A stretch of DNA of 63,744 nt, filler included, from Raillietiella orientalis (GCA_036172245.1; 3 parts of 3 records of this genome joined end to end with filler, not necessarily neighbours in it); one strand, 5' to 3'; shown: positions 6,100-63,744, counted from the whole stretch's first letter. The notes: generated by a model from the letters alone, not told the origin. Translations and numbers: made by a program.

Positions 6100-7850
6100 C
6101 GGGAAGAAAAATTGCTGTTTTGGCTCTTCTCGTATCTTTCCTTGCAGCAGACCTCAGCCTGCTAAGCAGCAGATAGGCAAAAAAGGTTCGTAGGCGAATG
6201 TGGAGAACGTGAAATGTCTTACGTTGGCACGTAGTTGCGTTGAATTTTGCAATCGCAGTCTGGCGGCCCTCTTGATGTGTAGACACTGACTCTGCGAGGT
6301 CTTCCTGAAAATGTCTTTAAGTGGCATCACGGGTTTTCCGAAGAGCGTTCACACAGTACCGTGAGGTAAAGCATGCAGTAGTAAACAGCCCTTGGATCAG
6401 TATAGGGTCTCATTTTGATGCCACACTTCATGGATCGATTGTTCACCGTAAGGAAATCGAAGCAACAGGCATCACAGTGATGGGAAAAAGTCAGGTCATC
6501 ATCACCTCGCCACAGGCCAGCGAGAAGGTTACCAGTGAGAATGAGAATCAGCATACAACGGAACTGAGAAAACAAAGTACAATATCTCAGAATTCTGAGT
6601 GTGTGGAAGGGAAATGCTGCTGCTATGCGAATCAAGTGGAGCAGACATCGAATTTCTTAGCATTGCTTCACTTCAGCGTCTCTTTGTAGAGAGTATCTAG
6701 GCATGCTTACCATGTTACCACGGATCAAACCATCAATAAGAATTATTATAATACTCTTACGATCTCCACAGAGCCCTTACATAAAATAACATCGCAATCG
6801 GGAAATCTGATTACCAGAAGTGCACACAATTCGCGCACCCTACGCACACAAATAAGATATTCAAGTCAAGTTCTAAAAATCAAAGAACGCATTGCTGTTC
6901 TCTACAAGTGCTATTTCTCTGAGATTTAATTTTCATGTACATGCAGTAATGGTACTGTAGACATTTTCCGCATGCTCGCTTCCGTAAAATAGAAAACGTA
7001 TTGAAAGGGTCAATGGCAATATGGGATTCAGCGTGAACCAACACATTGAAATGGATCCAACTGAGAAATAGAACACAGGAATCAGGGTTGCTATTTTTTC
7101 ATCACAGGTGGGTTGGGCAAACGGCCTTATGAACAGCACACATTGCAAGTGCCCCTTGGGTTCATTCAGTACTCAGAACGTCACGGGAGCTGCTCTTCGA
7201 CTCCCTCTGATAAAACCCGACTGCATGCACTTGGAAATGTCCTCGTCAAAACAGGTAATTGTTCTTCTCCTCTATTCGCGCTGGAGACCATGAACATGAG
7301 GAGGTTCTTTCCTAACCTATCCCATAAAAATTGACGAACCGCACGTCATCACCGGAAGAATAGTAGCAGCGAATAGTAGTAAGCAAAGCTCATTAAGAGG
7401 AGCGCTCGGCCTACCTCCAGAAAGACGCCAAAACCCTTCAGTGTGTATATCCACAAGAGAGACTGAAACTTTCCACAAAATTCTTTCCTTCGGCGGCGAT
7501 ATTCCTCCCCACTTTCAGTAGACTGGTAGATGGCGTGCTCAGGGAAAGTGCTTGAAACAGAAAAGATGTTCGCAGTGAGCAACTGCATAAGGTTTTCACA
7601 AACATTCTACTGATGAGTGCATGCGCGGAAGGTGTGCAAGAAATTTATTCTTCAAGAAAAACCCCAACACACGCCTGCACCCATCACTCAACTGTAACAA
7701 AGTGGATAAAGCCGATTCACCGTATTTATCCACATCTCTTATCCTCATTTTCTGAATGTCCTTTGAAGCTCTTCTTCTTGCTCTTCTTTCATGTCCCACC
7801 TGTATCAAAAAAAGGACAAAATAAGCGATGCAAACCTTCGACAAAATCGA
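6100..7850 (-). pseudogene. Possible heavily decayed rhodopsin-like (class A) GPCR fragments
   Basis: Hydrophobic segments with GPCR-like words: LILILTGNLLA (TM1 GN), SLACGEVMM..MP (TM2), KMRPY...VYYCMLYLTVLCER (TM3/ERY), LLLMSFAY (TM5), ISMCWF (TM6). The order is not collinear as one gene and the frames are broken. Confidence 0.25.
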
Positions 7851-16257: not shown

Positions 16258-16349
16258 ACGATGCTCTTTTAAGTTCTGAGTGAACACGAAACGCTAACGT
16301 CGACGATGCTCTTTTAAGTTCTGAGTGAACACGAAATGCTAACGTCGAC
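16258..16349 (+). repeat. 45-bp tandem duplication (2 copies)
   Basis: ACGATGCTCTTTTAAGTTCTGAGTGAACACGAAA(C/T)GCTAACGTCG starts at 16258 and again at 16303, with one mismatch. Confidence 0.95.
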
Positions 16350-19289: not shown

Positions 19290-21395
19290 TGTTGGATAAA
19301 AAAGGAAAAGTATTATTTCCCACTGATCACTTATGTGATCCAAATTTGCAGTGTTTTCTGTTTTGCAATCAATTCCAAATCAAATGATTTCACCATTGCA
19401 ATCTTTCGCTACTTCCCCAAGCAACCATTTGCACGGTTCAGCAAATAAGAAGCAAACACATCCTCTCTGAATCGCAATCTCTTAAAGAAAATGATGGAAT
19501 AAGGGAAGAGTAATAATTTATTAGAGCGTCGCACAATGGACTTTGTGCAGTCTTCATAGCAAACAGTGTTGGAAATGAAAAGATAAAGTTTTATTTCCTA
19601 GTAAACCCTTATTTGCTCAAATTTGCTTCGATTTGTGTTTTGAAATCAAATTCAAATCAGCGGATTTCACCAATGCACTCTATTGCCACACTACCATGCT
19701 CCCATTTGCCCGGAGATGCAAATAGACGAAAAACACAACAGCAGTGCATCCCAAACTCTTGAAAATAGCAAAAATGAAGGAGACTGAAGCTTCACTTGAG
19801 AGAGGAGCAATGGGCTGTCTGCTGTTTTCAAGGCAACCAGTTTAGGAAATAAAAAGACCAACTTTAATTTATAAATACTTCCTCATGTGGACCAAACATG
19901 CAGAGATTTGTGCTTTGCAATCAATTCAAAACCAGCGGAATTCACCCATGCACTTTTTCGTCACTTGTCTATGCATCCATTTGCTCAGAGATACAAATAA
20001 GCGGCAATCACATACCAACGGCATACCAATATCTTGGAAACTATGAAAAAATCAGGGGAGAGCCAAACTTCATTAAAGAGAGACACACTGACATCTCTGT
20101 GGTTTTCAAGCCAACCAGTGTTCGAAATGAGAAAATAAAGTTCAATTTACAACTGATTCCTTATGTGGTCCAAATTTCCAGAGTTTGGTCATTACAAATA
20201 AATTGTAATTCTGCAGATTACACCATTGCGCTCTTTCGCCACTTCCACATGCATGCATTTCCCCGGAGGTGCAAATACACGTTTATCACATCCCCACTGC
20301 ATCCGAATCCCTTGGAACAAGCGAAAAAATCACAAGCGGCCCGAAATTCTAAGGGAGGAGCACATTGGTCGTTGTGCTATTTCCATGGCAACCATTTTTG
20401 CAATGAAGAGATAGTCTTTTTTCCCCAAAAATTCCTTTTCTGGACCAAATTTCCAGTGTTTTGTGAATTGAAATCATTTTCAAGGCTATGGATTCCATTA
20501 ATGCGCTCCTTCCGAACTTCCCACGGATCCCTTTCGACGGGGATGGAAATGCACGTTTATCACTTCTCCACTGCATCCGAATCCATTGGAAAAATTCAAA
20601 AAATCACAAGGAAACCAAACTTATTTAAGGATGGGCAAATTACACTTTGAGATGTTTTCATGGCAACCATTTTTGCAATGAAGAGATAAAGTTTTTATCC
20701 CACCGAATTCCTTTTGTGGTCCATATTTCCAGTGATTGGTGATTTCAAATCATTTTTAATTGCGTCGAATCCGACAGTACGCTCCTTCAGATCTTTCTCA
20801 CGGTTCCCTTTACACGGGGATGCAAATAAACGTTCATGACATCCCCACTGCATCCGAATCCCTTGGAACAAGGGAAAATATCACAAGAGGCCCAAACTTA
20901 TTCAAGGAGGGGCAAATTGGCCTCTGAGGTGTTTTGATGGCAACCATTTTCGGAATGAAGAGATAAAGTTTTTTCCCTCCAAATGGCTCTTGCGGTCCAA
21001 ATTTCCGGTTTTTCGTGATTTTAATTCATTTTCCATAGTGTCGATTCCACCATTGCGCACCATCGGAGCACAGACACGGTTCACTTTCCTCTGGGATGCT
21101 GATGTAGGTTTATCACATCCCCACAGCTTTCGAATCCCTTCTAACAAGTGAAAATATCACAAGAGGCACAAACTTATTCAAGGATGGGCACATTAGTCTT
21201 TGAGCTGTTTTCATGGCAGCCATTTATACAAAGGAGAGATAAAGTTTTCTTTCCAACAAATTTCTTTTGTGGACCAAATTTCCAGTGTTTGGTGATCTCA
21301 AAAGATTTTCAATTGCTTCAAATCCGCCATTGCGCTCCTTCGGAGCTTCCAGACGGATCCAATTCCAGGTGGATGCAAATACACTATCATCACAT
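19290..21395 (+). repeat. About 7-8 degenerate tandem monomers of the 278-bp satellite family
   Basis: Period ~275-278 bp. The satellite words TTTTCATGGCAACCATTTTTGCAATG, CCAAATTT, GATTTCAAATCATTTT, GGATGCAAAT and CACATCCCCAC recur (GGCAACCATT-like at ~20388, 20662, 20939, 21215). The last monomer breaks off after ...CATCACAT at 21395. Confidence 0.9.
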
Positions 21396-21495
21396 GAACG
21401 AACAGCGTGAGGTGACGCAATTCCGCTGATTGACAGCGTACTGGCGACCTAACCTAACCCCCCTCCCTTTTTAAGTCTGGCTGGTGGGCACGCCC

Positions 21496-21598
21496 ATCCG
21501 ACTTTATCAGCCTTCCACGAGGTCGGATCACACCCACGCGCTTCCCACGTGCACAGCAACAGCTTGTTCCGCATACCATAGCCTTCCACGATTGCGGA
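21496..21598. promoter_or_regulatory. Twin hairpins presenting an identical 12-nt motif (putative replication or priming signal)
   Basis: The stems ATCCGAC(21496-21502)/GTCGGAT(21522-21528) and TCCGCA(21568-21573)/TGCGGA(21593-21598) each close a 19-nt loop. Each loop contains AGCCTTCCACGA (21509-21520 and 21580-21591) at the same register. Function is inferred. Confidence 0.6.
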
Positions 21599-21667
21599 CA
21601 AAGACCAGCCACCATCTATATCTATTTTAACATACGGAATTTCCCAAGGTTTTGCGTTGTCAGCTAC

Positions 21668-21702
21668 ATGCAATCTGGGTAATACTATTGACCAGATTGC
21701 AT
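21668..21702 (-). promoter_or_regulatory. Rolling-circle origin of replication: 11-bp stem-loop with nonanucleotide TAGTATTAC
   Basis: ATGCAATCTGG (21668-21678) and CCAGATTGCAT (21692-21702) are perfect inverted repeats. The 13-nt loop contains GTAATACTA (21679-21687), which reads TAGTATTAC on the minus strand, the canonical circovirus/cyclovirus/nanovirus nick site. Confidence 0.93.
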
Positions 21703-21707
21703 TTCTG

Positions 21708-21735
21708 CGCAGTTACGCAGTATAAATACAACTGC
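21708..21735 (+). promoter_or_regulatory. Iteron-like repeats and TATA box upstream of Rep
   Basis: CGCAGT occurs at 21708 and 21716, with an inverted ACTGC at 21731. TATAAATA lies at 21721-21728, starting 27 and 57 bp before in-frame ATGs at 21748 and 21778. Confidence 0.55.
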
Positions 21736-21747
21736 ACGGACAACCAA

Positions 21748-22596
21748 ATGCAAGTCTTACTTACCGAGAATTTCGAGATGCCGTACGCACTATTTTTTAA
21801 TTGGTGTTTCACCTTGTGCAATTTCACAGAAGAAGACCTGAAGGAGATCAAGATATGGTGCCGAGCAAACTGCTTCTTCGCCTGAATCGGGAAAGAAACA
21901 GCCAAGACAGGGACGCCACACCTCCAAGGCTACTTCCAGATAAAAGAACCTAGAACTATGCCAGGCATAAAAGGCAAAACATTTGGAAAATGTCACCTAG
22001 AAAAAGAGGCAGTCCTCGGAGCAACTTGAGGTACTGCTCCAAGCAAGACAAAGAAGTTTGGACATACTGCAAAATCAACGAAGACAACGAACCACAGGAT
22101 TACCAAGATCTCGTAAGCATAATAACCACCTAACAAACCTAAAACAATTCTATCACAGATACTACAACTCATAGAAGATGGAGCTGATGAACACTTAATA
22201 CTCAAGAACCACACAAAGTTTTATTCTAACAACATCAACTTTGTCAAAGAGTGCTTCCGACTGACAAGAAGCAGAGCACACCCCAATGCCTTAGCAAACC
22301 TACAACATCGATCCTCGCAATTGGACATCATGAAGCATATTCGCCACACGCCAGACAACAGGAAAATACATTGGATCTATGATACCGTCGCAGGAATAGG
22401 CAAAACCACAATGCCCAAATTCCTGTACCTTAAGAAGGGTGCTATCTACATGCACTCCTGTAAAAAGGCCAACGCTGCCCATATCCACAATGGAGAACGA
22501 ATAATAGATGTGGACCTTACAAGAGATAATATGGAACATGTCAAATATGGATTTATTGAGAGTATTAAAAATGGAATTATTTTCGAATCCAAATAA
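21748..22596 (+). pseudogene. rep: Replication-associated protein (HUH endonuclease plus SF3 helicase) of a CRESS DNA virus, disrupted and 3'-truncated
   Basis: Motif I WCFTLCN (21802-21822); in-frame TGA at 21883-21885; IGKE..TGTPHLQGY with motif II PHLQG (21916-21930); HLEK, then a frameshift (~22003) to RGSPRSNLRYCSK with motif III YCSK (22032-22043); second frameshift ~22130; PDNRKIHWIYDTVAGIGKT (Walker A), IIDVDLTR (Walker B), YGFIESIKNGIIFESK* (TAA at 22594). Motif C is missing. Confidence 0.93.
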
Positions 22597-22620
22597 CAAG
22601 GCTATATAAAATATTCTCAA

Positions 22621-22915
22621 CGGACTGCAACGGTTGAATGGACGCAATTAAAATTCATTTGGAACCACCAAACACTCGATATTTGGACCAGAAAAGGAAT
22701 TTCGCGGTCATAAAACTTGATCTCTATATTACAAAAATGGTTGCCATGAAAAACACTCAAAGTCCAGAGTGCCTATCAGTGAATGAGTTTGCGCTTGTTG
22801 TGATTTATTCACTTGTTGCAAGCGATGAGGTGAGAATGGGTATGTGATAAACGTGCATTTGTACCCTCGTGGAGAGGGACCCTTAAGATTGCTCCGAAGG
22901 GGTGCAATGGATGAT
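22621..22915 (-). repeat. Inverted degenerate 278-bp satellite monomer abutting the truncated Rep
   Basis: The reverse complement reads TTTTCATGGCAACCATTTTTGTAAT...TTCCTTTTCTGGTCCAAAT...GTGTTTGGTG...TTTTAATTGCGTC, matching the + strand monomer at ~20655-20770. Confidence 0.88.
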
Positions 22916-22929
22916 TGTCAGCAATTAAA

Positions 22930-23455
22930 AGTATCTGTGTGGATTTCATCGATACCAGTATAGGAATTAGAAAGTGAAAGTTTCCCTTCGCTCTGATTCA
23001 TTATGTGGTCTAAATTTGCAACTATTTGGGGTTTGTAATCACTTCGAAGTCAACAGATTTCACCATTGCACTTTTGCGCCTCTTCCCGAACAATCCATCT
23101 GCTGTGAGAGGCAAACTCCCTTCATGGAGACCCGCACAACCTTCCAATTTCCTTTGTTCAGCATAACATTGAAATGAGACGGACGTTTAATTAGGGCGTG
23201 GCACTTTGGCCTCTGTGTGGTTTTCATGGTATCCAGTTTCGCAAGAAAAAAGTGAATGTTTCCTTTCGCTCTGATCCATTAAGTGGTCTAAATTTGCAAC
23301 TTTTTGGGGTTTGTAATAAGTTCGAAGTCAGCAGATTTCAATATTGCGCTTTTGCGTCTCTTCCGGAAGCATCGATTTGCTGTGAGTGCAAATTCTCTTG
23401 ATGGAGACCCGCACAACTTGGCAATTTCCTGGGTTCAGAAGAACATTGAGATGAG
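22930..23455 (+). repeat. Two further divergent 278-bp-family monomers, back in + orientation
   Basis: TTCGCTCTGAT..ATT..GTGGTCTAAATTTGCAACT.TTTGGGGTTTGTAAT and ATGGAGACCCGCACAAC repeat at ~277-bp spacing. CAAATTTGCA-like and TTTTCATGG words link them to the family. Confidence 0.8.
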
Positions 23456-23555
23456 NNNNNNNNNNNNNNNNNNNNNNNNNNNNNNNNNNNNNNNNNNNNT
23501 TAATTAATTAANNNNNNNNNNNNNNNNNNNNNNNNNNNNNNNNNNNNNNNNNNNN
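23456..23555. other. Artificial contig spacer (44 N + TTAATTAATTAA + 44 N)
   Basis: Exactly 100 bp, with the six-frame stop linker at 23500-23511. Confidence 0.98.
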
Positions 23556-46930: not shown

Positions 46931-47030
46931 NNNNNNNNNNNNNNNNNNNNNNNNNNNNNNNNNNNNNNNNNNNNTTAATTAATTAANNNNNNNNNNNNNN
47001 NNNNNNNNNNNNNNNNNNNNNNNNNNNNNN
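46931..47030. other. Artificial contig spacer (44 N + TTAATTAATTAA + 44 N)
   Basis: Identical 100-bp structure, with the linker at 46975-46986. Confidence 0.98.
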
Positions 47031-50000
47031 AGTGTTTGGTGATTTCAAATCATTTTCTATGTTGTCGATTCCATCGATGCGCTCCTTCCGAGCATCCGAA
47101 CGGTTTCCGTCCCCTTTGGATGCAAATGCACCTTAATCACATCCCCACTTCATCCGAACCCCTCCCTCCAGGAGAAGAAATCATAAGAGAACCGACCTAA
47201 TTTCAAGAGGGTAGGATTGGTCTTAGTCTGGTTTTCATGGCAACCATTTTTGCAATGCAAAGTTCAGTTTTTCTCCATCTTCCTTTTTTCAGTGCAAATT
47301 TGCAGTGTTTGGTGATTTCAAATCATTTTCTATGATGTCGATTCCTTCGATGCGCTCCTTCCGAGCATCCGAACGGATTCCTTCCCCTTTGGATGCAAAT
47401 ACACCTTTATCACATCCTGACTTCTTCCGAATCCCTTGCTCCACGAGAAGAAATCATAGTAGAATCAACCTAATTTCAAGAGAAGAGGATTGGTGTTAGT
47501 CTTGTTTTCATGGCAACCATTTTTGGAATGCAGAGATCAAGTTTTTTTCCCTCCATGTTCCTTTTTTCAGTGCAAATTTGCAGTGTTTGGTGATTTCAAA
47601 TCATTTTCTATGTCGTCGATTCCATCGATGCGCTCCTTCCGAGCATCCGAACGGTTTCCGTCCACTTTGGAAGCAAATGCACCTTAATCACATCCCCACT
47701 TCATCCGAATCCCTCCCTCCAGGAGAAGTAATCATAAGAGAACCGACCGAATTTCAAGAGAAGAGGATTGGTCTTAGTCTGGTTTTCATGGCAACCATTT
47801 TTGCAATTCACAGATCACGTTTTTTTCCCTCCATCTGACTTTTTTCAGTGCAAATTTGCAGTGTTTGGTGATTTCAAATCATTTTCTATGATGTCGATTC
47901 CATCGATGCGCTCCTTCCGAGCATCCGAACGGTTTCCGTCCACTTTGGATGCAAATGCACCTTAATCACATCCCCACTTCATCCGAATCCCTCCCTCCAG
48001 GAGAAGAAATCATAAGAGAACCGACCTAATTTCAAGATGGTAGGATTGGTCTTAGTCTGGTTTTCATGGCAACCATTTTTGCAATGCACAGTTTAAGTTT
48101 TTTTCCGTCCACCTTGCTTTTTTCAGTGCAAATTTGCAGTGCTTGGTGATTTCAAATCATTTTCTATGATGTCGATTCCATCGATGCGCTCCTTCCGAGT
48201 ATCCGAACGGTTTCCTTCCCCTTTGGATGCAAATGCACCTTAATCACATCCCCACTTCATCCGAATCCCTTCCTCCACGAGAAGATATCATAAGAGAACC
48301 GACCTAATTTCAAGAGGGGAGGATTGGTCTTAGTCTGGTTTTCATGGCAACCATTTTTGCAATGCAGAGTTCAAGTTTTTTTCCCTCCACCTTTCTTTTT
48401 TCAGTGCAAATTTGCAGTGTTTGGTGATTTCAAATCATTTTCTATGATGGCGATTCCATCGATGCCCTCCTTCCGAGCATCCGAACGCTTTCCGTCCCCT
48501 TTGGATGCAAATGCACCTTAATCACATCCCCACTTCATCCGAATCCCTTCCTCCACGAGAAGATATCATAAGAGAACCGACCTAATTTCAAGAAGGGAGG
48601 ATTAGTCTTAGTCTGGTTTTCATGGCAACCATTTTTGCAATTCAAAGATCAAGTTTTTTTTTCTCCATCTTCCTTTTTTCAGTGCAAATTTGCAGTGCTT
48701 GGTGATTTCAAATCATTTTCTATGATGTCGAATCCATCGATGCGCTCCTTCCGAGCATCCGAACGGATTCCGTCCCCTTTGGATGCAAATGCACCTTAAT
48801 CACATCCCCACTTCATCCGAACCCCTCCCTCCAGGAGAAGAAATCATAAGAGAACCGACCTAATTTCAAGAGGGTAGGATTGGTCTTAGTCTGGCTTTCA
48901 AGGCAACCATTTTTGCAATGCGCAGTTCAGGTTTTTTTCCCTCCACCTTCCTTTTTTCAGTGAAAATTTGCAGTGTTTGGTGATTTCAAATCATTTTCTA
49001 TGATGTCGATTCCTTCGATGCGCTCCTTCCGAGCATCCGAACGGATTCCTTCCCCTTTGGATGCAAATACACCTTTATCACATCCTGACTTCTTCCGAAT
49101 CCATCCCTCCAGGAGAAGTAATCATAAGAGAACCGACCGAATTTCAAGAGAAGAGGATTGGTCTTAGTCTGGTTTTCATGGCAACCATTTTTGCAATTCA
49201 CAGATCACGTTTTTTTCCCTCCATCTGACTTTTTTCAGTGCAAATTTGCCGTGTTTGGTGATTTCAAATCATTTTCTATGATGTCGATTCCATCGATGCC
49301 CTCCTTCCGAGCATCCGAACGGTTTCCGTCCACTTTGGATGGAAATGCACCTTAATCACATCCCCACTTCATCCGAATCCCTCCCTCCAGGAGAAGAAAT
49401 CATAAGAGAACCGACCTAATTTCAAGATGGTAGGATTGGTCTTAGTCTGGTTTTCATGGCAACCATTTTTGCAATGCACAGTTTAAGTTTTTTTCCGTCC
49501 ACCTTGCTTTTTTCAGTGCAAATTTGCAGTGCTTGGTGATTTCAAATCATTTTCTATGATGTCGATTCCATCGATGCGCTCCTTCCGAGTATCCGAACGG
49601 TTTCCTTCCCCTTTGGATGCAAATGCACCTTAATCACATCCCCACTTCATCCGAATCCCTTCCTCCACGAGAAGATATCATAAGAGAACCGACCTAATTT
49701 CAAGAGGGGAGGATTGGTCTTAGTCTGGTTTTCATGGCAACCATTTTTGCAATGCAGAGTTCAAGTTTTTTTCCCTCCACCTTTCTTTTTTCAGTGCAAA
49801 TTTGCAGTGTTTGGTGAGTTCAAATCATTTTCTATGATGGCGATTCCATCGATGCCCTCCTTCCGAGCATCCGAACGCTTTCCGTCCCCTTTGGATGCAA
49901 ATGCACCTTAATCACATCCCCACTTCATCCGAATCCCTTCCTCCACGAGAAGATATCATAAGAGAACCGACCTAATTTCAAGAAGGGAGGATTAGTCTTA

Positions 50001-53000
50001 GTCTGGTTTTCATGGCAACCATTTTTGCAATTCAAAGATCAAGTTTTTTTTTCTCCATCTTCCTTTTTTCAGTGCAAATTTGCAGTGCTTGGTGATTTCA
50101 AATCATTTTCTATGATGTCGAATCCATCGATGCGCTCCTTCCGAGCATCCGAACGGATTCCGTCCCCTTTGGATGCAAATGCACCTTAATCACATCCCCA
50201 CTTCATCCGAACCCCTCCCTCCAGGAGAAGAAATCATAAGAGAACCGACCTAATTTCAAGAGGGTAGGATTGGTCTTAGTCTGGCTTTCAAGGCAACCAT
50301 TTTTGCAATGCGCAGTTCAGGTTTTTTTCCCTCCACCTTCCTTTTTTCAGTGAAAATTTGCAGTGTTTGGTGATTTCAAATCATTTTCTATGATGTCGAT
50401 TCCTTCGATGCGCTCCTTCCGAGCATCCGAACGGATTCCTTCCCCTTTGGATGCAAATACACCTTTATCACATCCTGACTTCTTCCGAATCCATCCCTCC
50501 AGGAGAAGTAATCATAAGAGAACCGACCGAATTTCAAGAGAAGAGGATTGGTCTTAGTCTGGTTTTCATGGCAACCATTTTTGCAATTCACAGATCACGT
50601 TTTTTTCCCTCCATCTGACTTTTTTCAGTGCAAATTTGCCGTGTTTGGTGATTTCAAATCATTTTCTATGATGTCGATTCCATCGATGCCCTCCTTCCGA
50701 GCATCCGAACGGTTTCCGTCCACTTTGGATGGAAATGCACCTTAATCACATCCCCACTTCATCCGAATCCCTCCCTCCAGGAGAAGAAATCATAAGAGAA
50801 CCGACCTAATTTCAAGATGGTAGGATTGGTCTTAGTCTGGTTTTCATGGCAACCATTTTTGCAATGCACAGTTTAAGTTTTTTTCCGTCCACCTTGCTTT
50901 TTTCAGTGCAAATTTGCAGTGCTTGGTGATTTCAAATCATTTTCTATGATGTCGATTCCATCGATGCGCTCCTTCCGAGTATCCGAACGGTTTCCTTCCC
51001 CTTTGGATGCAAATGCACCTTAATCACATCCCCACTTCATCCGAATCCCTTCCTCCACGAGAAGATATCATAAGAGAACCGACCTAATTTCAAGAGGGGA
51101 GGATTGGTCTTAGTCTGGTTTTCATGGCAACCATTTTTGCAATGCAGAGTTCAAGTTTTTTTCCCTCCACCTTTCTTTTTTCAGTGCAAATTTGCAGTGT
51201 TTGGTGAGTTCAAATCATTTTCTATGATGGCGATTCCATCGATGCCCTCCTTCCGAGCATCCGAACGCTTTCCGTCCCCTTTGGATGCAAATGCACCTTA
51301 ATCACATCCCCACTTCATCCGAATCCCTTCCTCCACGAGAAGATATCATAAGAGAACCGACCTAATTTCAAGAAGGGAGGATTAGTCTTAGTCTGGTTTT
51401 CATGGCAACCATTTTTGCAATTCAAAGATCAAGTTTTTTTTTCTCCATCTTCCTTTTTTCAGTGCAAATTTGCAGTGCTTGGTGATTTCAAATCATTTTC
51501 TATGATGTCGAATCCATCGATGCGCTCCTTCCGAGCATCCGAACGGATTCCGTCCCCTTTGGATGCAAATGCACCTTAATCACATCCCCACTTCATCCGA
51601 ACCCCTCCCTCCAGGAGAAGAAATCATAAGAGAACCGACCTAATTTCAAGAGGGTAGGATTGGTCTTAGTCTGGCTTTCAAGGCAACCATTTTTGCAATG
51701 CGCAGTTCAGGTTTTTTTCCCTCCACCTTCCTTTTTTCAGTGAAAATTTGCAGTGTTTGGTGATTTCAAATCATTTTCTATGATGTCGATTCCTTCGATG
51801 CGCTCCTTCCGAGCATCCGAACGGATTCCTTCCCCTTTGGATGCAAATACACCTTTATCACATCCTGACTTCTTCCGAATCCATCCCTCCAGGAGAAGTA
51901 ATCATAAGAGAACCGACCGAATTTCAAGAGAAGAGGATTGGTCTTAGTCTGGTTTTCATGGCAACCATTTTTGCAATTCACAGATCACGTTTTTTTCCCT
52001 CCATCTGACTTTTTTCAGTGCAAATTTGCCGTGTTTGGTGATTTCAAATCATTTTCTATGATGTCGATTCCATCGATGCCCTCCTTCCGAGCATCCGAAC
52101 GGTTTCCGTCCACTTTGGATGGAAATGCACCTTAATCACATCCCCACTTCATCCGAATCCCTCCCTCCAGGAGAAGAAATCATAAGAGAACCGACCTAAT
52201 TTCAAGATGGTAGGATTGGTCTTAGTCTGGTTTTCATGGCAACCATTTTTGCAATGCACAGTTTAAGTTTTTTTCCGTCCACCTTGCTTTTTTCAGTGCA
52301 AATTTGCAGTGCTTGGTGATTTCAAATCATTTTCTATGATGTCGATTCCATCGATGCGCTCCTTCCGAGTATCCGAACGGTTTCCTTCCCCTTTGGATGC
52401 AAATGCACCTTAATCACATCCCCACTTCATCCGAATCCCTTCCTCCACGAGAAGATATCATAAGAGAACCGACCTAATTTCAAGAGGGGAGGATTGGTCT
52501 TAGTCTGGTTTTCATGGCAACCATTTTTGCAATGCAGAGTTCAAGTTTTTTTCCCTCCACCTTTCTTTTTTCAGTGCAAATTTGCAGTGTTTGGTGATTT
52601 CAAATCATTTTCTATGATGGCGATTCCATCGATGCCCTCCTTCCGAGCATCCGAACGCTTTCCGTCCCCTTTGGATGCAAATGCACCTTAATCACATCCC
52701 CACTTCATCCGAATCCCTTCCTCCACGAGAAGATATCATAAGAGAACCGACCTAATTTCAAGAAGGGAGGATTAGTCTTAGTCTGGTTTTCATGGCAACC
52801 ATTTTTGCAATTCAAAGATCAAGTTTTTTTTTCTCCATCTTCCTTTTTTCAGTGCAAATTTGCAGTGCTTGGTGATTTCAAATCATTTTCTATGATGTCG
52901 AATCCATCGATGCGCTCCTTCCGAGCATCCGAACGGATTCCGTCCCCTTTGGATGCAAATGCACCTTAATCACATCCCCACTTCATCCGAATCCCTTCCT

Positions 53001-56000
53001 CCAGGAGAAGTAATCATAAGAGAACCTACCGTATTTGAAGAGAAGAGGATTGGTCCTAGTCTGGTTTTCATGGAAACCATTTTTGCAATTCACAGATCAC
53101 GTTTTTTTCCCTCCATCTTACTTTTTTCAGTGCAAATTTGCAGTGTTTGGTGATTTCAAATCATTTTCTATGATGTCGATTCCATCGATGCGCTCCTTCC
53201 GAGCATGCTAACGGTTTGCGTCCACTTTGGATGCAAATGCACCTTTATCACATCCTGACTTCTTCCGAATCCCTTGCTCCACGAGAAGAAATCATAGTAG
53301 AATCAACCTAATTTCAAGAGAAGAGGATTGGTGTTAGTCTTGTTTTCATGGCAACCATTTTTGGAATGCAGAGATCAAGTTTTTTTCCCTCCATGTTCCT
53401 TTTTTCAGAGCAAATTTGCAGTGTTTGGTGATTTCAAATCATTTTCTATGTCGTCGATTCCATCGATGCGCTCCTTCCGAGCATCCGAACGGTTTCCGTC
53501 CACTTTGGAAGCAAATGCACCTTAATCACATCCCCACTTCATCCGAATCCATCCCTCCAGGAGAAGTAATCATAAGAGAACTGACCGAATTTCAAGAGAA
53601 GAGGATTGGTCTTAGTCTGGTTTTCATGGCAACCATTTTTGCAATTCACAGATGACGTTTTTTTCCCTCCATCTGACTTTTTTCAGTGCAAATTTGCAGT
53701 GCTTGGTGATTTCAAATCATTTTCTATGATTTCGATTCCATCGATGCGCTCCTTCCGAGCATCCGAACGGTTTCCGTCCCCTTTGGATGCAAATGCACCT
53801 TAATCACATCCCCACTTCATCCGAATCCCTTCCTCCAGGAGAAGAAATCATAAGAGAACCGACCTAATTTCAAGAAGGGAGGATTAGTCTTAGTCTGGTT
53901 TTCATGGCAACCATTTTTGCAATTCAAAGATCAAGTTTTTTTTCTCCATCTTCCTTTTTTCAGTGCAAATTTGCAGTGCTTGGTGATTTCAAATCATTTT
54001 CTATGATGTCGAATCCATCGATGCGCTCCTTCCGAGCATCCGAACGGATTCCGTCCCCTTTGGATGCAAATGCACCTTAATCACATCCCCACTTCATCCG
54101 AACCCCTCCCTCCAGGAGAAGAAATCATAAGAGAACCGACCTAATTTCAAGAGGGTAGGATTGGTCTTAGTCTGGCTTTCAAGGCAACCATTTTTGCAAT
54201 TCAAAGATCAAGTTTTTTTCCCTCCATGTTCCTTTTTTCAGTGCAAATTTGCAGTGCTTGGTGATTTCAAATCATTTTCTATGTCGTCGATTCCATCGAT
54301 GCGCTCCTTCCGAGCATCCGAACGGTTTCCGTCCACTTTGGAAGCAAATGCACCTTAATCACATCCCCACTTCATCCGAATCCATCCCTCCAGGAGAAGT
54401 AATCATAAGAGAACCGACCGAATTTCAAGAGAAGAGGATTGGTCTTAGTCTGGTTTTCATGGCAACCATTTTTGCAATTCACAGATCACGTTTTTTTCCC
54501 TCCATCTGACTTTTTTCAGTGCAAATTTGCCGTGTTTGGTGATTTCAAATCATTTTCTATGATGTCGATTCCATCGATGCCCTCCTTCCGAGCATCCGAA
54601 CGGTTTCCGTCCACTTTGGATGGAAATGCACCTTAATCACATCCCCACTTCATCCGAATCCCTCCCTCCAGGAGAAGAAATCATAAGAGAACCGACCTAA
54701 TTTCAAGATGGTAGGATTGGTCTTAGTCTGGTTTTCATGGCAACCATTTTTGCAATGCACAGTTTAAGTTTTTTTCCGTCCACCTTGCTTTTTTCAGTGC
54801 AAATTTGCAGTGCTTGGTGATTTCAAATCATTTTCTATGATGTCGATTCCATCGATGCGCTCCTTCCGAGTATCCGAACGGTTTCCTTCCCCTTTGGATG
54901 CAAATGCACCTTAATCACATCCCCACTTCATCCGAATCCCTTCCTCCACGAGAAGATATCATAAGAGAACCGACCTAATTTCAAGAGGGGAGGATTGGTC
55001 TTAGTCTGGTTTTCATGGCAACCATTTTTGCAATGCAGAGTTCAAGTTTTTTTCCCTCCACCTTTCTTTTTTCAGTGCAAATTTGCAGTGTTTGGTGAGT
55101 TCAAATCATTTTCTATGATGGCGATTCCATCGATGCCCTCCTTCCGAGCATCCGAACGCTTTCCGTCCCCTTTGGATGCAAATGCACCTTAATCACATCC
55201 CCACTTCATCCGAATCCCTTCCTCCACGAGAAGATATCATAAGAGAACCGACCTAATTTCAAGAAGGGAGGATTAGTCTTAGTCTGGTTTTCATGGCAAC
55301 CATTTTTGCAATTCAAAGATCAAGTTTTTTTTTCTCCATCTTCCTTTTTTCAGTGCAAATTTGCAGTGCTTGGTGATTTCAAATCATTTTCTATGATGTC
55401 GAATCCATCGATGCGCTCCTTCCGAGCATCCGAACGGATTCCGTCCCCTTTGGATGCAAATGCACCTTAATCACATCCCCACTTCATCCGAATCCATCCC
55501 TCCAGGAGAAGAAATCATAAGAGAACCGACCTAATTTCAAGAGGGTAGGATTGGTCTTAGTCTGGCTTTCAAGGCAACCATTTTTGCAATGCGCAGTTCA
55601 GGTTTTTCTCCCTCCACCTTCCTTTTTTCAGTGAAAATTTGCAGTGTTTGGTGATTTCAAATCATTTTCTATGATGTCGATTCCTTCGATGCGCTCCTTC
55701 CGAGCATCCGAACGGATTCCTTCCCCTTTGGATGCAAATACACCTTTATCACATCCTGACTTCTTCCGAATCCCTTGCTCCACGAGAAGAAATCATAGTA
55801 GAATCAACCTAATTTCAAGAGAAGAGGATTGGTGTTAGTCTTGTTTTCATGGCAACCATTTTTGGAATGCAGAGATCAAGTTTTTTTCCCTCCACCTTCC
55901 TTTTTTCAGTGAAAATTTGCAGTGTTTGGTGATTTCAAATCATTTTCTATGATGTCGAATCCATCGATGCGCTCCTTCCGAGCATCCGAACGGTTTCCGT

Positions 56001-57246
56001 CCACTTTGGATGCAAATGCACCTTAATCACATCCCCACTTCATCCGAATCCCTCCCTCCAGGAGAAGAAATCATAAGAGAACCGACCTAATTTCAAGAGG
56101 GTAGGATTGGTATTAGTCTGGTTTTCATGACAACCATTTTTGCAATGCACAGATCAAATTTTTTTCGCTCCACCTTCCTTTTTTTAGTGCATATTTGCAG
56201 TGTTTGGTGATTTCAAATCATTTTCTATGATGTCGATTCCATCGATGCGCTCCTTCCGTGCATCCGAACGGATTCCTTCCCCTTTGGATGCAAATGCACC
56301 TTTCTCACATCCCGACTTCTTCCGATTCCCTTGCTCCACGCGAAGAAATCATCCGAGAACCGAACTAATTTGAAAAGGGGAGGATTGGTCTTAGTCTGGT
56401 TTTCATGGCAACCATTTTTGCAATGCACAGATAAAGTTTTTTTCCCTCCATCTTTCTTTTTTTAGTGCAAATTTGCTGTGTTTGAGGATTTCAAATCATT
56501 TTCTATGATGTCGATTCCATCGATGCGCTCCCTCCGTGCATCCGAACGGATTCCTTCCCCTTTAGATGCAAATGCACCTTTCTCACATCCCGACTTCTTC
56601 CGATTCCCTTGCTCCACGCGAAGAAATCATCCGAGAACCGAACTAATTTGAAAAGGGGAGGATTGGTCTTAGTCTGGTTTTCATGACAACCATTTTTGCA
56701 ATGCACAGATCAAATTTTTTTCCCTCCATCCTTCCTTTTTTTAGTGCAAATTTGCTGTGTTTGAGGATTTCAAATCATTTTCTATGATGTCGATTCCATC
56801 GATGCGCTCCTTCCGTGCATCCGAACGGATTCCTTCCCCTTTGGATGCAAATGCACCTTTCTCACATCCCGACTTCTTCCGATTCCCTTGCTCCACGCGA
56901 AGAAATCAACCGAGAACCGAACTAATTTGAAAAGGGGAGGATTGGTCTTAGTCTGGTTTTCATGACAACCATTTTTGCAATGCACAGATCAAGTTTTTTT
57001 CCCTCCATCTTCCTTTTTTTAGTGCAAATTTGCTGTGTTTGGTGATTTCAAATCATTTTCTATGATGTCGATTCCATCGATGCGCTCCTTCCGTGCATCC
57101 GAACGGATTCCTTCCCCTTTGGATGCAAATGCACCTTTCTCACATCTCGACTTCTTCCGATTCCCTTGCTCCACGCGAAGAAATCAACCGAGAACCGAAC
57201 TAATTTGAAAAGGGGAGGATTGGTCTTAGTCTGGTTTTCATGGCAA

Positions 57247-57286
<40 letters not shown>

Positions 57287-60200
57287 ACAGATTGAGTTTT
57301 TTTTTCTGCCATCATCTTCTTCTTTGTGCACAAAAGAAGCGTTTAACAAATTTGCTGGTTTGAGGGGTTTTCAATCATTTTCTATGATGTCGATTCCATC
57401 GATGCGCTCCCTCCGTGCATCCGAACGGATTCCTTCCCCTTTGGATGCAAATGCACCTTTCTCACATCCCGACTTCTTCCGATTCCCTTGCTCCACGCGA
57501 AGAAATCATCCGAGAACCGAACTAATTTGAAAAGGGGAGGATTGGTCTTAGTCTGGTTTTCATGGCAACCATTTTTGCAATGCACAGATCAAGTTTTTTT
57601 CCCTCCATCTTCCTTTTTTTAGTGCAAATTTGCTGTGTTTGAGGATTTCAAATCATTTTCTATGATGTCGATTCCATCGATGCGCTCCTTCCGTGCATCC
57701 TAACGGATTTCTTCCCCTTTGGATGCAAATGCACCTTTCTCACATCCCGACTTCCTCCGAATCCCTTGCTCCACGAGAAGAAATCATAAGAGAACCGAAC
57801 TGATTTCAAACAGGGAGGATTGGTCTTAGTCTGGTTTTCATGGCAACCATTTTTGCAATGCACAGATCAAGTTTTTTTCCCTCCATCTTCCTTTTTTTAG
57901 TGCAAATTTGCTGTGTTTGAGGATTTCAAATCATTTTCTATGATGTCGATTCCATCGATGCGCTCCTTCCGTGCATCCGAACGGATTCCTTCCCCTTTAG
58001 ATGCAAATGCACCTTTCTCACATCCCGACTTCTTCCGATTCCCTTGCTCCACGCGAAGAAATCAACCGAGAACCGAACTAATTTGAAAAGGGGAGGATTG
58101 GTCTTAGTCTGGTTTTCATGGCAACCATTTTTGCAATGCACAGATCAAGTTTTTTTCCCTCCATCTTCCTTTTTTTAGTGCAAATTTGCTGTGTTTGAGG
58201 ATTTCAAATCATTTTCTATGATGTCGATTCCATCGATGCGCTCCCTCCGTGCATCCGAACGGATTCCTTCCCCTTTAGATGCAAATGCACCTTTCTCACA
58301 TCCCGACTTCTTCCGATTCCCTTGCTCCACGCGAAGAAATCATCCGAGAACCGAACTAATTTGAAAAGGGGAGGATTGGTCTTAGTCTGGTTTTCATGGC
58401 AACCATTTTTGCAATGCACAGATATGGTTTTTTTCCCTCCATCTTTCTTTTTCTAGTGCAAATTTGCTGTGTTTGAGGATTTCAAATCATTTTCTATGAT
58501 GTCGATTCCATCGATGCGCTCCTTCCGTGCATCCGAACGGATTCCTTCCCCTTTAGATGCAAATGCACCTTTCTCACATCCCGACTTCTTCCGATTCCCT
58601 TGCTCCACGCGAAGAAATCATCCGAGAACCGAACTAATTTGAAAAGGGGAGGATTGGTCTTAGTCTGGTTTTCATGACAACCATTTTTGCAATGCACAGA
58701 TCAAATTTTTTTCCCTCCACCTTCCTTTTTTTAGTGCAAATTTGCTGTGTTTGAGGATTTCAAATCATTTTCTATGATGTCGATTCCATCGATGCGCTCC
58801 TTCCGTGCATCCGAACGGATTCCTTCCCCTTTAGATGCAAATGCACCTTTCTCACATCCCGACTTCTTCCGATTCCCTTGCTCCACGCGAAGAAATCATC
58901 CGAGAACCGAACTAATTTGAAAAGGGGAGGATTGGTCTTAGTCTGGTTTTCATGACAACCATTTTTGCAATGCACAGATCAAGTTTTTTTCCCTCCATCT
59001 TCCTTTTTTCGGTGCAAATTTCAGGGGTGTGGTGATTTCAAATCATTTTCTATGATGTCGATTCCATCGATGCGCTCCTTCCGTGCATCCGAACGGATTC
59101 CTTCCCCTTTCGATGCAAATGCACCTTTCTCACATCCCGACTTCTTCCGATTCCCTTGCTCCACGCGAAGAAATCATCCGAGAACCGAACTAATTTGAAA
59201 AGGGGAGGATTGGTCTTAGTCTGGTTTTCATGACAACCATTTTTGCAATGCACAGATCAAGTTTTTTTCCCTCCATCTTCCTTTTTTTAGTGCAAATTTG
59301 CTGTGTTTGAGGATTTCAAATCATTTTCTATGATGTCGATTCCATCGATGCGCTCCTTCCGTGCATCCGAACGGATTCCTTCCCCTTTAGATGCAAATGC
59401 ACCTTTCTCACATCCCGACTTCTTCCGATTCCCTTGCTCCACGCGAAGAAATCATCCGAGAACCGAACTAATTTGAAAAGGGGAGGATTGGTCTTAGTCT
59501 GGTTTTCATGACAACCATTTTTGCAATGCACAGATCAAATTTTTTTCCCTCCATCTTCCTTTTTTTAGTGCAAATTTGCTGTGTTTGAGGATTTCAAATC
59601 ATTTTCTATGATGTCGATTCCATCGATGCGCTCCTTCCGTGCATCCGAACGGATTCCTTCCCCTTTAGATGCAAATGCACCTTTCTCACATCCCGACTTC
59701 TTCCGATTCCCTTGCTCCACGCGAAGAAATCATCCGAGAACCGAACTAATTTGAAAAGGGGAGGATTGGTCTTAGTCTGGTTTTCATGGCAACCATTTTT
59801 GCAATGCACAGATGAAGTTTTTTTCCCTCCATCTTCCTTTTTTTAGTGCAAATTTGCTGTGTTTGAGGATTTCAAATCATTTTCTATGATGTCGATTCCA
59901 TCGATGCGCTCCTTCCGTGCATCCGAACGGATTCCTTCCCCTTTGGATGCAAATGCACCTTTCTCACATCTCGACTTCTTCCGATTCCCTTGCTCCACGC
60001 GAAGAAATCAACCGAGAACCGAACTAATTTGAAAAGGGGAGGATTGGTCTTAGTCTGGTTTTCATGGCAACCATTTTTGCAATGCACAGATGAAGTTTTT
60101 TTCCCTCCATCTTCCTTTTTTTAGTGCAAATTTGCTGTGTTTGAGGATTTCAAATCATTTTCTATGATGTCGATTCCATCGATGCGCTCCTTCCGTGCAT

Positions 60201-63200
60201 CCGAACGGATTCCTTCCCCTTTGGATGCAAATGCACCTTTCTCACATCCCGACTTCCTCCGAATCCCTTGCTCCACGAGAAGAAATCATAAGAGAACCGA
60301 ACTGATTTCAAACAGGGAGGATTGGTCTTAGTCTGGTTTTCATGGCAACCATTTTTGCAATGCACAGATCAAGTTTTTTTCCCTCCATCTTCCTTTTTTT
60401 AGTGCAAATTTGCTGTGTTTGAGGATTTCAAATCATTTTCTATGATGTCGATTTCATCGATGCGCTCCTTGCGTGCATCCTAACGGATTTCTTCCCCTTT
60501 GGATGCAAATGCACCTTTCTCACATCCCGACTTCCTCCGAATCCCTTGCTCCACGAGAAGAAATCATAAGAGAACCGAACTGATTTCAAACAGGGAGGAT
60601 TGGTCTTAGTCTGGTTTTCATGACAACCATTTTTGCAATGCACAGATCAAGTTTTTTTCCCTCCATCTTCCTTTTTTCAGTGCAAATTTGCTGTGTTTGA
60701 GGATTTCAAATCATTTTCTATGATGTCGATTCCATCGATGCGCTCCTTCCGTGCATCCGAACGGATTCCTTCCCCTTTGGATGCAAATGCACCTTTCTCA
60801 CATCCCGACTTCCTCCGAATCCCTTGCTCCACGAGAAGAAATCATAAGAGAACCGAACTGATTTCAAAAAGGGAGGATTGGTCTTGGTCTGGTTTTCATG
60901 GCAACCATTTTTGCAATGCACAGATCAACTTTTTTTCCCTCCATCTTCCTTTTTTCGGTGCAAATTTGAGGGGTTTGGTGATTTCAAATCATTTTCTATG
61001 ATGTCGATTCCATCGATGCGCTCCTTCCGTGCATCCGAACGGATTTCTTCCCCTTTGGATGCAAATGCACCTTTCTCACATCCCGACTTCCTCCGAATCC
61101 CTTGCTCCACGAGAAGAAATCATCCGAGAACCGAACTAATTTGAAAAGGGGAGGATTGGTCTTAGTCTGGTTTTCATGACAACCATTTTTGCAATGCACA
61201 GATCAAATTTTTTTCCCTCCACCTTCCTTTTTTTAGTGCAAATTTGCAGTGTTTGGTGATTTCAAATCATTTTCTATGATGTCGATTCCATCGATGCGCT
61301 CCTTCCGTGCATCCGAACGGATTCCTTCCCCTTTAGATGCAAATGCACCTTTCTCACATCCCGACTTCTTCCGATTCCCTTGCTCCACGCGAAGAAATCA
61401 TCCGAGAACCGAACTAATTTGAAAAGGGGAGGATTGGTCTTAGTCTGGTTTTCATGACAACCATTTTTGCAATGCACAGATCAAATTTTTTTCCCTCCAT
61501 CTTCCTTTTTTTAGTGCAAATTTGCTGTGTTTGAGGATTTCAAATCATTTTCTATGATGTCGATTCCATCGATGCGCTCCTTCCGTGCATCCGAACGGAT
61601 TCCTTCCCCTTTAGATGCAAATGCACCTTTCTCACATCCCGACTTCTTCCGATTCCCTTGCTCCACGCGAAGAAATCATAAGAGAACCGACCTAATTTCA
61701 AGAGGGTAGGATTGGTCTTAGTCTGGTTTTCATGGCAACCATTTTTGCAATGCACAGAACAAGTTTTTTTCCATCTACCTTTCTATTTCAGTGCAAATTT
61801 GCAGCGCTTGGTGATTTCAGATCATTTTCTATGATGTCGATTCCATCGATGCGCTCCTTCCGAGCATCCGAACAGTTTCCTTCCCCTTTGGATGCAAATG
61901 CACCTTAATCACATCCCCACTTCATCCGAATCCCTTCCTCCACGTGAAGAAATCATAGTAGAATCAACCTAATTTCAAGAGAAGAGGATTAGTCTTAGTC
62001 TGGTTTTCATGGCAACCCTTTTTGCAACGCGCAGTTCAGGTTTTTTTCCCTCCACCTTCCTTTTTTCAGTGCAAATTTGCAGTGTTTGGTGATTTCAAAT
62101 CATTTTCTATGACGTCGATTCCATCGATGCGCTCCTTGCGAGCATCGGAACGGTTTCCGTCTTCTTTGGAAGAAAATGCACGTTAATCACATCCCCACTT
62201 CATCCGAATCCCTTCCTCCACGAGAAGATATCATAAGAGAACCGACCTAATTTCAAGAAGGGAGGATTAGTCTTAGTCTGGTTTTCATGGCAACCCTTTT
62301 TGCAACGCGCAGTTCAGGTTTTTTTCCCTCCACCTTCCTTTTTTCAGTGCAAATTTGCAGTGTTTGGTGATTTCAAATCATTTTCTATGACGTCGATTCC
62401 ATCGATGCGCTCCTTGCGAGCATCGGAACGGTTTCCGTCTTCTTTGGAAGCAAATGCACCTTAATCACATCCCCACTTCATCCGAATCCCTTCCTCCACG
62501 AGAAGATATCATAAGAGAACCGACCTAATTTCAAGAAGGGAGGATTAATCTGAGTCTGGTTTTCATAAAAACCATTTTTGCAATGCACAGATCAACTTTT
62601 TTCCCTCCATCTTCCTTTTTTCAGTGCAATTTTGATGGGTTTGGTGATTTCAAATCATTTTCTATGATGTGGATTCGATCGTTGGGATCCTTCCGAGCAT
62701 ACGAACGGTTTCCTTCTCCTTGGGATGCAAATGCACCTTTCTCACATCCCGACATCCTCCGAATCCCTTGCTCCACGAGAAGAAATCATAAGAGAACCGA
62801 ACTGATTTCAAAAAGGGAGGATTGGTCTTGGTCTGGTTTTCATGGCAACCATTTTTGCAATGCATAGATCTACTTTTTTTCCCTCCACCTTCCCTTTTTA
62901 AGTGCAAATTTGCAGTGTTTGAGGATTTCAAATCATTTTCTATGATGTGGATTCGATCGTTGGGCTCCTTCCGAGCATACGAACGGTTTCCTTCTCCTTT
63001 GGATGCAAATGCACCTTTCTCACATCCCGACATCCTCCGAATCCCTTGCTCCACGAAAAGAAATCATAAGAGAGCCAAACTAATTTAAAAAGAAGAGGAT
63101 TCGACTTAGTCTGGTTTTCATGGAAACCATTTTTGCAATGCACAGATCAACTTTTTCTCCCTCCACCTTTCTTTTTTCACTGCAAATTTGATGGGTTTGG

Positions 63201-63744
63201 TGATTTGAAAACATGTTTTATGATGTCGATTCGATCGTTGGGCTCCTTGCGAGCATACGAACGATTTCCTTCTCCTTTGGATGCAAATGCACCTTTCTCA
63301 CATCCCGACATCCTCCGAATCCCTTGCTCCACGAAAAGAAGTCATAAGAGAGCCGAACTAATTTGAAAAGGGGAGGATTGGACTTAGTCTGGTTTTCATG
63401 GCAACCATTTTCGCAATGCACAGATCAACTTTTTTCCCTCCAACTTCCTTTTTTCGGTGCAAATTTGATGGGTTGGGTGATTTCAAATCATTTTCTATGA
63501 TGTGGATTCGATCGTTCGGCTCCTTTGGAGCATACGAACAATTTCCTTCTCCTTTGGATGCAAATGCACCTTTTTCACATCCCGACATCCTCCGACTCCC
63601 TTGCTCCTCGAAAAGAAGTCATAAGAGAGCCGAACAAATTTGAAAAGGGGAGGATTGGACTTAGTCTGGTTTTCATGGCAACCATTTTTGCAATGCACAG
63701 ATCAAGTTTTCTTCCCTCCATCTTCCTTTTTTCAGTGCAAATTT
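47031..63744 (+). repeat. 278-bp tandem satellite array, about 60 monomers, with a 5-mer higher-order repeat and three subfamily domains
   Basis: The repeated 67-aa minus-strand pseudo-ORF recurs every 278 bp (57660, 57938, 58216...). The diagnostic variant TTCAAGATGG at 48031, 49421, 50811 and 52201 gives a period of 1390 = 5x278. Confidence 0.99.
57248..57281 (+). repeat. (CA)17 microsatellite inside one satellite monomer
   Basis: It replaces ATTTTTGCAAT after GGCAACC. This monomer is 44 bp longer than normal and the following ~90 bp are garbled, so it may be a sequencing or consensus artefact. Confidence 0.7.

Follow-up and report, generated by a model that had tools for sequence, protein, structure and literature searches.

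A probable endogenous CRESS-DNA virus fragment, with an origin hairpin and a broken Rep gene, within satellite DNA of Raillietiella orientalis

Endogenous elements derived from the replication-associated protein (Rep) of circular Rep-encoding single-stranded (CRESS) DNA viruses are widespread in invertebrates, protists and vertebrates, and often contain stop codons and frameshifts (PMC6186406). The part of that paper dealing with such elements, as met in a literature search that was not exhaustive, speaks of Rep and sometimes of capsid, without mention of a preserved origin hairpin, whereas a hairpin is preserved at the locus described here. Two described cases combine both parts: Nicotiana GRD and yam EGV1 consist of a degenerate, truncated rep and an intergenic fragment with an origin-like stem-loop, fixed in the host chromosome, with rep on the strand opposite the nonanucleotide and the viral unit in multiple direct tandem repeats (PMC5014472). 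Here, we analyze a block of 1,225 bp (positions 21396-22620) in a 63,744-base stretch of DNA from Raillietiella orientalis (GCA_036172245.1), the whole of which we refer to as the window. An earlier interpretation of this block, hereafter the sequence-only reading, had described it as a CRESS-virus-like replicon embedded in satellite DNA, and had held that endogenous CRESS elements are usually recognised only as Rep fragments, a generalization that overlooks GRD and EGV1 (PMC5014472).

We consider it very likely that the block is an endogenous viral element, namely a sub-genomic fragment of an unclassified Cressdnaviricota virus comprising the origin region and most of rep. The block sequence is viral, its gene is broken, host repeat flanks it on both sides within one contig, and there is one copy in the window, as the block matches only itself when compared by BLAST with all 63,744 bases. 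It contains a stem-loop, a nonanucleotide, an iteron-like pair of hexamers, a TATA box and a Rep pseudogene, which retains about 88% of the Rep gene and, as in free-living relatives, reads away from the origin. Like GRD and EGV1, it has kept a truncated rep together with an origin-like region, and Rep lies opposite the nonanucleotide (PMC5014472). Unlike them, it is a single copy amid host satellite repeats, with no head-to-tail arrangement within the window, and its Rep is not geminiviral, as it matches Pfam Viral_Rep (PF02407) and its relatives are unclassified Cressdnaviricota. Fossils that combine an origin with a truncated Rep are already known from GRD and EGV1; this one comes from an unsampled lineage and lies inside satellite DNA. 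The features of its origin region and of its Rep gene are:

21668-21702, no strand: origin-like stem-loop with 11 perfect pairs and a 13-nt loop
21679-21687, minus strand: nonanucleotide TAGTATTAC, its sole match in the window
21708-21721, plus strand: direct pair of iteron-like hexamers, CGCAGT-TA-CGCAGT, placed after the stem-loop and before the TATA box
21721-21728, plus strand: TATA box TATAAATA, read from the sequence, 57 nt upstream of the Rep ATG
21778-22620, plus strand: Rep pseudogene, HUH nuclease and a probable superfamily 3 (SF3) helicase that extends past Walker B through the next conserved block, C-terminus missing
21883-21885, plus strand: in-frame TGA between motifs I and II, within the aligned nuclease domain
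21999-22029, plus strand: first frameshift; main-frame homology stops at HLEKE, and motif III is in another frame
22110-22140, plus strand: second frameshift, with return to the main frame, placed from translations and profile alignment
22597-22599, plus strand: in-frame TAA within a conserved helicase block

The origin region has the organization known from CRESS-DNA viruses, that is, a nonanucleotide at the apex of a stem-loop beside rep. The stem arms, ATGCAATCTGG and CCAGATTGCAT, enclose the loop GTAATACTATTGA. Folded as single-stranded DNA, the plus strand reaches -12.1 kcal/mol (z -4.23), a value equaled by none of 200 shuffles, and the minus strand reaches -11.1 kcal/mol (z -3.96), with one of 200 shuffles as good. 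The nonanucleotide TAGTATTAC occurs once in the window, where 0.02 occurrences are expected and only 2 of 100 shuffles contained at least one; it lies opposite Rep, whose own strand carries TAATACTAT. The hexamer pair is also unique in the window (0.07 expected, allowing up to one mismatch) and is too short to be significant alone; we regard it as iteron-like only, and as weak evidence on its own. The ATG of Rep is at 21778.

When checked with profile hidden Markov models, the first 83 Rep residues, with the stop written as X, matched PF02407 at 8e-11 (42.5 bits, cut-off 26), and the nuclease piece also matched solved Rep nuclease domains in the PDB (best 5e-09). In the main frame, a profile of 30 relatives aligned across positions 9-271 of its 304 (201 bits, 3.8e-63), and the same profile also aligned to a second frame over the stretch that contains motif III. 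The following motifs are recognisable: motif I (CFTLCN), motif II (PHLQG), motif III (YCSK), Walker A (AGIGKT) and Walker B (IIDVD). Motifs I-III, which mark an HUH nuclease, align to those of the relatives, although motif III is out of frame here, and the two Walker motifs align to relatives carrying PF00910. The elements listed in the sequence-only reading, a 1.2-kb block with a perfect stem-loop, iteron-like repeats, a TATA box and a Rep carrying rolling-circle replication motifs I-III and Walker A/B, are therefore all present, with a stem of 11 bp and a unique TAGTATTAC.

The open helicase piece (22141-22596, 151 residues) has no Pfam match and no PDB match of its own. Word-index protein searches with this piece, at near and longer lengths, returned no matches, and a PHROGs search gave no meaningful match. 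An exhaustive HMMER search with the 151 residues found 1470 relatives at E<=0.001, 117 of them at <=1e-10 and a single one, P0001, at <=1e-30 (1.3e-32, 37% identity).

The gene is interrupted at four points and cut short at its end. The codons of motif III (YCSK) are at 22032-22043, beyond the first frameshift and outside the main frame. Past the TAA, homology continues for about 7 more codons, to 22620, and tblastn matches extend to 22611-22617; Rep is lost from profile position 272 on, so that the last ~33 positions are missing, including the block with helicase motif C in the relatives. With two stops, two frameshifts and a truncation, this copy of Rep is dead. Since Rep is broken and truncated, the block is not a replicon, contrary to what the sequence-only reading had proposed; the locus today is inactive as a replicon and undergoes at most passive transcription along with the surrounding repeats. 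Two ways of restoring the frame were considered and rejected. Introns in place of the frameshifts do not fit, as homology in one frame overlaps that in the other at the first shift, and a gap of only about 28 nt separates them at the second. An alternative genetic code was rejected by inspection, as the two stops are not the same codon and reassigning them would leave the frameshifts.

The relatives of this Rep are unclassified metagenomic Cressdnaviricota (IMG/VR loci L002-L018; proteins P0002-P0045), with which it shares a Viral_Rep domain and a probable SF3 helicase of the PDDRKI-W-YD...GKT...KNG type. Ten relatives that were looked up come from contigs of 1-4 kb. Only a few carry a name, which is replication-associated protein of Cressdnaviricota sp. 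or, in one case, stool-associated alphasatellite, as its source calls it. We scanned seven relatives for domains, five of the top nine helicase-search matches and two source-named proteins from the profile search: Viral_Rep was found in six, four of these six also reached the RNA_helicase cut-off, and P0001 showed neither domain. No close exogenous counterpart was found. Identity by tblastn segment is 26-50%, and the helicase is at most 37-39% identical to any relative found, in a collection that represents about 15 billion proteins.

Related Reps are encoded by 18 IMG/VR contigs, 2.0-5.6 kb in length. In 13 of them, a GTAATACT loop on the Rep strand is closed by a stem of 8 bp or more without mismatches; of the others, four gave no stem-loop under the strict search used and one gave a spurious match. 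The stem-loop is at the 5' end of Rep in all 11 relatives whose flanks were inspected. Because 13 of 18 relatives share this architecture, the orientation of origin and Rep in the window is authentic for the assemblage. The order of the elements differs: in the inspected relatives, iterons spaced by 9 nt lie 5' of the stem-loop, and the stem-loop is inside the predicted Rep open reading frame (ORF), whereas in the window the order is stem-loop, hexamer pair (on the 3' side), TATA box and ATG. In the inspected members of L002-L018, both the hairpin and the pair of iterons fall within the 5' end of the predicted Rep ORF, and the loop is translated G-N-T. Two of the contigs, L015 and L016, contain two or more genome units.

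The presence of TAATACTAT in the loop of the Rep strand, with Rep reading away from the origin, is the cyclovirus convention. In both respects the window follows the plan of cycloviruses and Circoviridae. The same motif has also been listed with genome type II for some genomoviruses (PMC6186406). Solved porcine-circovirus-type Rep chains match the nuclease domain of the window only (2.5e-06 to 2.7e-05), and the helicase piece is without a PDB match.

Searches at the level of nucleotides and contigs, and a phylogeny, place the window no more closely. The exact 23-nt origin core had no matches in the viral and metagenome contig collections, and the window piece used as a protein query against viral and metagenome contigs revealed no close relative. 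Relatives P0005 and P0013, used as queries for related loci, returned nothing. Where the sequence-only reading had envisaged a phylogeny of Rep, we ran a quick maximum-likelihood tree of the helicase region, with 72 rows that include three capsid ORFs as long branches and no family reference sequences; the window falls in no supported clade, has an end branch of 0.92 and reaches a best identity of 39%. P0001, the best match, is labeled by its source as a hypothetical protein of a bacterial metagenome-assembled genome, on a 3.9-kb contig. Its single ORF consists of two Rep helicase halves that are 89% identical (110/124), without a nuclease domain, and P0001 resembles a Rep fragment repeated in tandem more than it does a bacterial gene or the genome of a virus. 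A search of genome contigs with P0001 found nothing, its own contig not being retrieved.

The part of the block upstream of the hairpin, the left arm, is less readily identified. Its features are:

21396-21667, no strand: left arm, possibly a viral remnant (intergenic or from the 5' part of a capsid gene), or filler DNA
21509-21598, plus strand: 19-nt direct repeat in two copies (AGCCTTCCACGA...), 71 nt spacing, 84% identity

The left arm is GC-rich (57.5% at 21400-21599) and has no other copy within the window. Its ORFs have no Pfam match. A recognisable capsid remnant was rejected on this ground and because tblastn against the ORFs of relatives, as well as a protein atlas score of 0.82, remained at chance level. 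Continuation of the Rep C-terminus into the left arm, as in a full Rep-only circle, was likewise rejected, as no match to the Rep profile was found. The left arm also contains a CCTAA-CCTAA-CCCCCC stretch (21440-21470), which is too short to be called telomere-like.

These results bear on the alternative, raised in the sequence-only reading, that the locus derives from a Rep-only replicon. Under this alternative, a near-complete circle of about 1.3 kb, resembling an alphasatellite or a nanovirus component, would have been linearised inside the 3' end of Rep, as opposed to a fragment having been taken from a capsid-encoding virus of 2-2.6 kb. The size of the insert (1,225 bp), the loss of only ~33 Rep profile positions, the lack of capsid homology in the left arm and the alphasatellite label given to one named relative by its source would all agree with such an origin. 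We nevertheless judge it very improbable. The left end does not supply the missing C-terminus of Rep, and in the quick tree the window and the 'alphasatellite' row are not grouped together. In Nanoviridae and Alphasatellitidae the nonanucleotide is on the same strand as rep. The window departs from these Rep-only circles (about 1-1.4 kb) in carrying TAGTATTAC opposite Rep. Furthermore, most of the 16 IMG/VR relatives with listed ORFs, on contigs of 2.0-3.8 kb, have an additional ORF with a basic N-terminus, which we read as putatively capsid-like from the printed sequence starts and which, in most of the 16, runs in the opposite direction to Rep. A fragment of a larger, capsid-encoding virus remains the preferred source of the block.

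Satellite repeats adjoin the block on both sides, and the surrounding features are:

20100-21395, plus strand: left flank satellite, about 4.5-4.7 direct copies of a 276-bp variant (TRF row 20156-21395)
22622-22930, minus strand: right flank satellite, about 1.1 inverted monomers, ~71% like the left-flank copies
22933-23455, plus strand: further diverged satellite in direct orientation to the contig end; BLAST 64-69% to 19836-20276
23456-23555, no strand: spacer of 44 N, TTAATTAATTAA and 44 N; an identical one is at 46931-47030

Among themselves the left-flank copies are ~75% alike, and their similarity to the 278-bp array at 47031-63744 is ~70-72% (TRF, BLAST); the monomers flanking the insert are, at 70-75% alike, old and diverged. 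At the left junction, satellite homology stops at 21393-21395 in five of six monomer comparisons and at 21406 in the sixth; on the right, local alignment pairs 22910-22622 with 21050-21338. Both junctions are sharp (21395/21396 and 22620/22622) and are found in one contig, so that, as in an endogenous element, host DNA is contiguous with the insert on both sides, on a single assembly. The sequence-only reading had described a satellite monomer interrupted at 21395 and satellite again after the insert: both flanks are indeed satellite within one contig, but the monomer on the right is inverted. Its view that the locus is the record of a past single-stranded DNA virus stands, as a CRESS-derived origin and Rep lie between satellite repeats in one contig.

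The two spacers are artificial all-frame-stop spacers of the contig-stringing kind. The window therefore represents at least three separate contigs, and the adjacency of arrays across the gaps is no real evidence. As a spacer begins at 23456, the contig that bears the insert ends at 23455, and the homogeneous arrays are on other contigs. One of these (23566-46930) has a repeat unit of 180 bp and a higher-order period of 360 bp (86-90% matches); the other (47031-63744) has a 278-bp unit (90% matches) and is distantly related (70-72%) to the monomers on either side of the insert. Self-BLAST of the block against the window detected no viral sequence in either array.

The make-up of this record also bears on whether the block could be an assembly chimera or a contaminant, in which reads from an exogenous CRESS virus were misjoined to satellite reads, with sequencing errors accounting for the stops and frameshifts. 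The record strings together unplaced repeat contigs by means of artificial spacers, and contigs of that sort are the least reliable part of an assembly; both frameshifts are in or near A runs. A chimera is very unlikely, however, in view of the remaining evidence. It would require two satellite junctions, both sharp, in one contig. The viral part is sub-genomic: it breaks off within the helicase, and the gene is not carried on at its left end, so that the block does not represent a full circle that was linearised. Two of the lesions are substitution-type stops within conserved regions, and the window helicase departs from its relatives at several positions where most relatives agree.

Returning to an endogenous element, the anatomy of the locus offers some indication of how it was captured. 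No target-site duplication is present at the insert, and the monomer phase at which the satellite stops differs between the two flanks, so the insert did not enter a single monomer cleanly. As the nonanucleotide is internal and unbroken, we infer that integration was not mediated by Rep at its nick site. The source was probably double-stranded replicative form, a linear piece of which entered a chromosome break in an old, diverged satellite array by end-joining. Since the flanks are oppositely oriented and a target-site duplication is lacking, local rearrangement probably took place alongside the capture, and the captured fragment would have decayed ever since.

The sequence-only reading had gone further and suggested a route by which satellite DNA could be amplified. 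A cognate Rep, encoded by an intact copy elsewhere or by a circulating or infecting virus, would nick the chromosomal origin; strand-displacement or rolling-circle synthesis would then proceed into the satellite and yield amplification, circles of origin plus satellite, or rearrangements such as the inverted monomer. If true, a virus would here be driving the turnover of satellite DNA. In favor of this reading, the stem-loop and nonanucleotide show no damage and fit the architecture of the family, the flanks are rearranged and include an inverted monomer, and a geminivirus can produce replicating hybrid virus/host minicircles (PMC6293997). This reading as a whole seems to us highly improbable, however, as the window holds one copy and one nonanucleotide, the adjacent monomers are old and diverged (70-75%) rather than recently amplified, and the homogeneous arrays, on other contigs, are virus-free. 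Replicative release, as known from geminivirus work, normally needs two origins. No intact Rep of this lineage was found, either by the exhaustive protein search or in viral and metagenome contigs. Finally, the intact hairpin can be explained without selection, because decay has been modest (2 stops and 2 indels in about 840 nt) and an element of 35 nt would be fairly likely to outlast it. The amplification route is without support in this window, and the locus gives no evidence for a new mechanism.

Several points weigh against the interpretation of the block as an endogenous fragment, and temper it. Its junctions are supported by one assembly, the 272-bp left arm is without demonstrable viral identity, and we infer the mechanism of capture from anatomy only. 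Both frameshifts, being in or near short A runs, are possibly assembly indel errors, though this would leave the two stops and the truncation in place. With an undamaged origin hairpin, the locus may also retain some susceptibility to nicking in trans by a cognate Rep.

Taken as an endogenous fragment, the block is a viral fossil of an ordinary kind, though the lineage of viruses it comes from is unsampled. It would show that a CRESS-DNA virus lineage without a close sampled relative once entered the germline, or the genome, of this eukaryote. The origin architecture of that lineage is preserved beside its Rep, which should be of use in paleovirology and in the host assignment of metagenomic CRESS viruses.

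No recognisable gene was found in 1-20100: a Pfam search of 26 long ORFs in the first 20 kb gave one sub-threshold match, to OATP (15 bits, cut-off 25.8) at 6321-6686. An Rfam scan of 1-23455 returned nothing. A 45-bp tandem duplication is present at 16258-16349.

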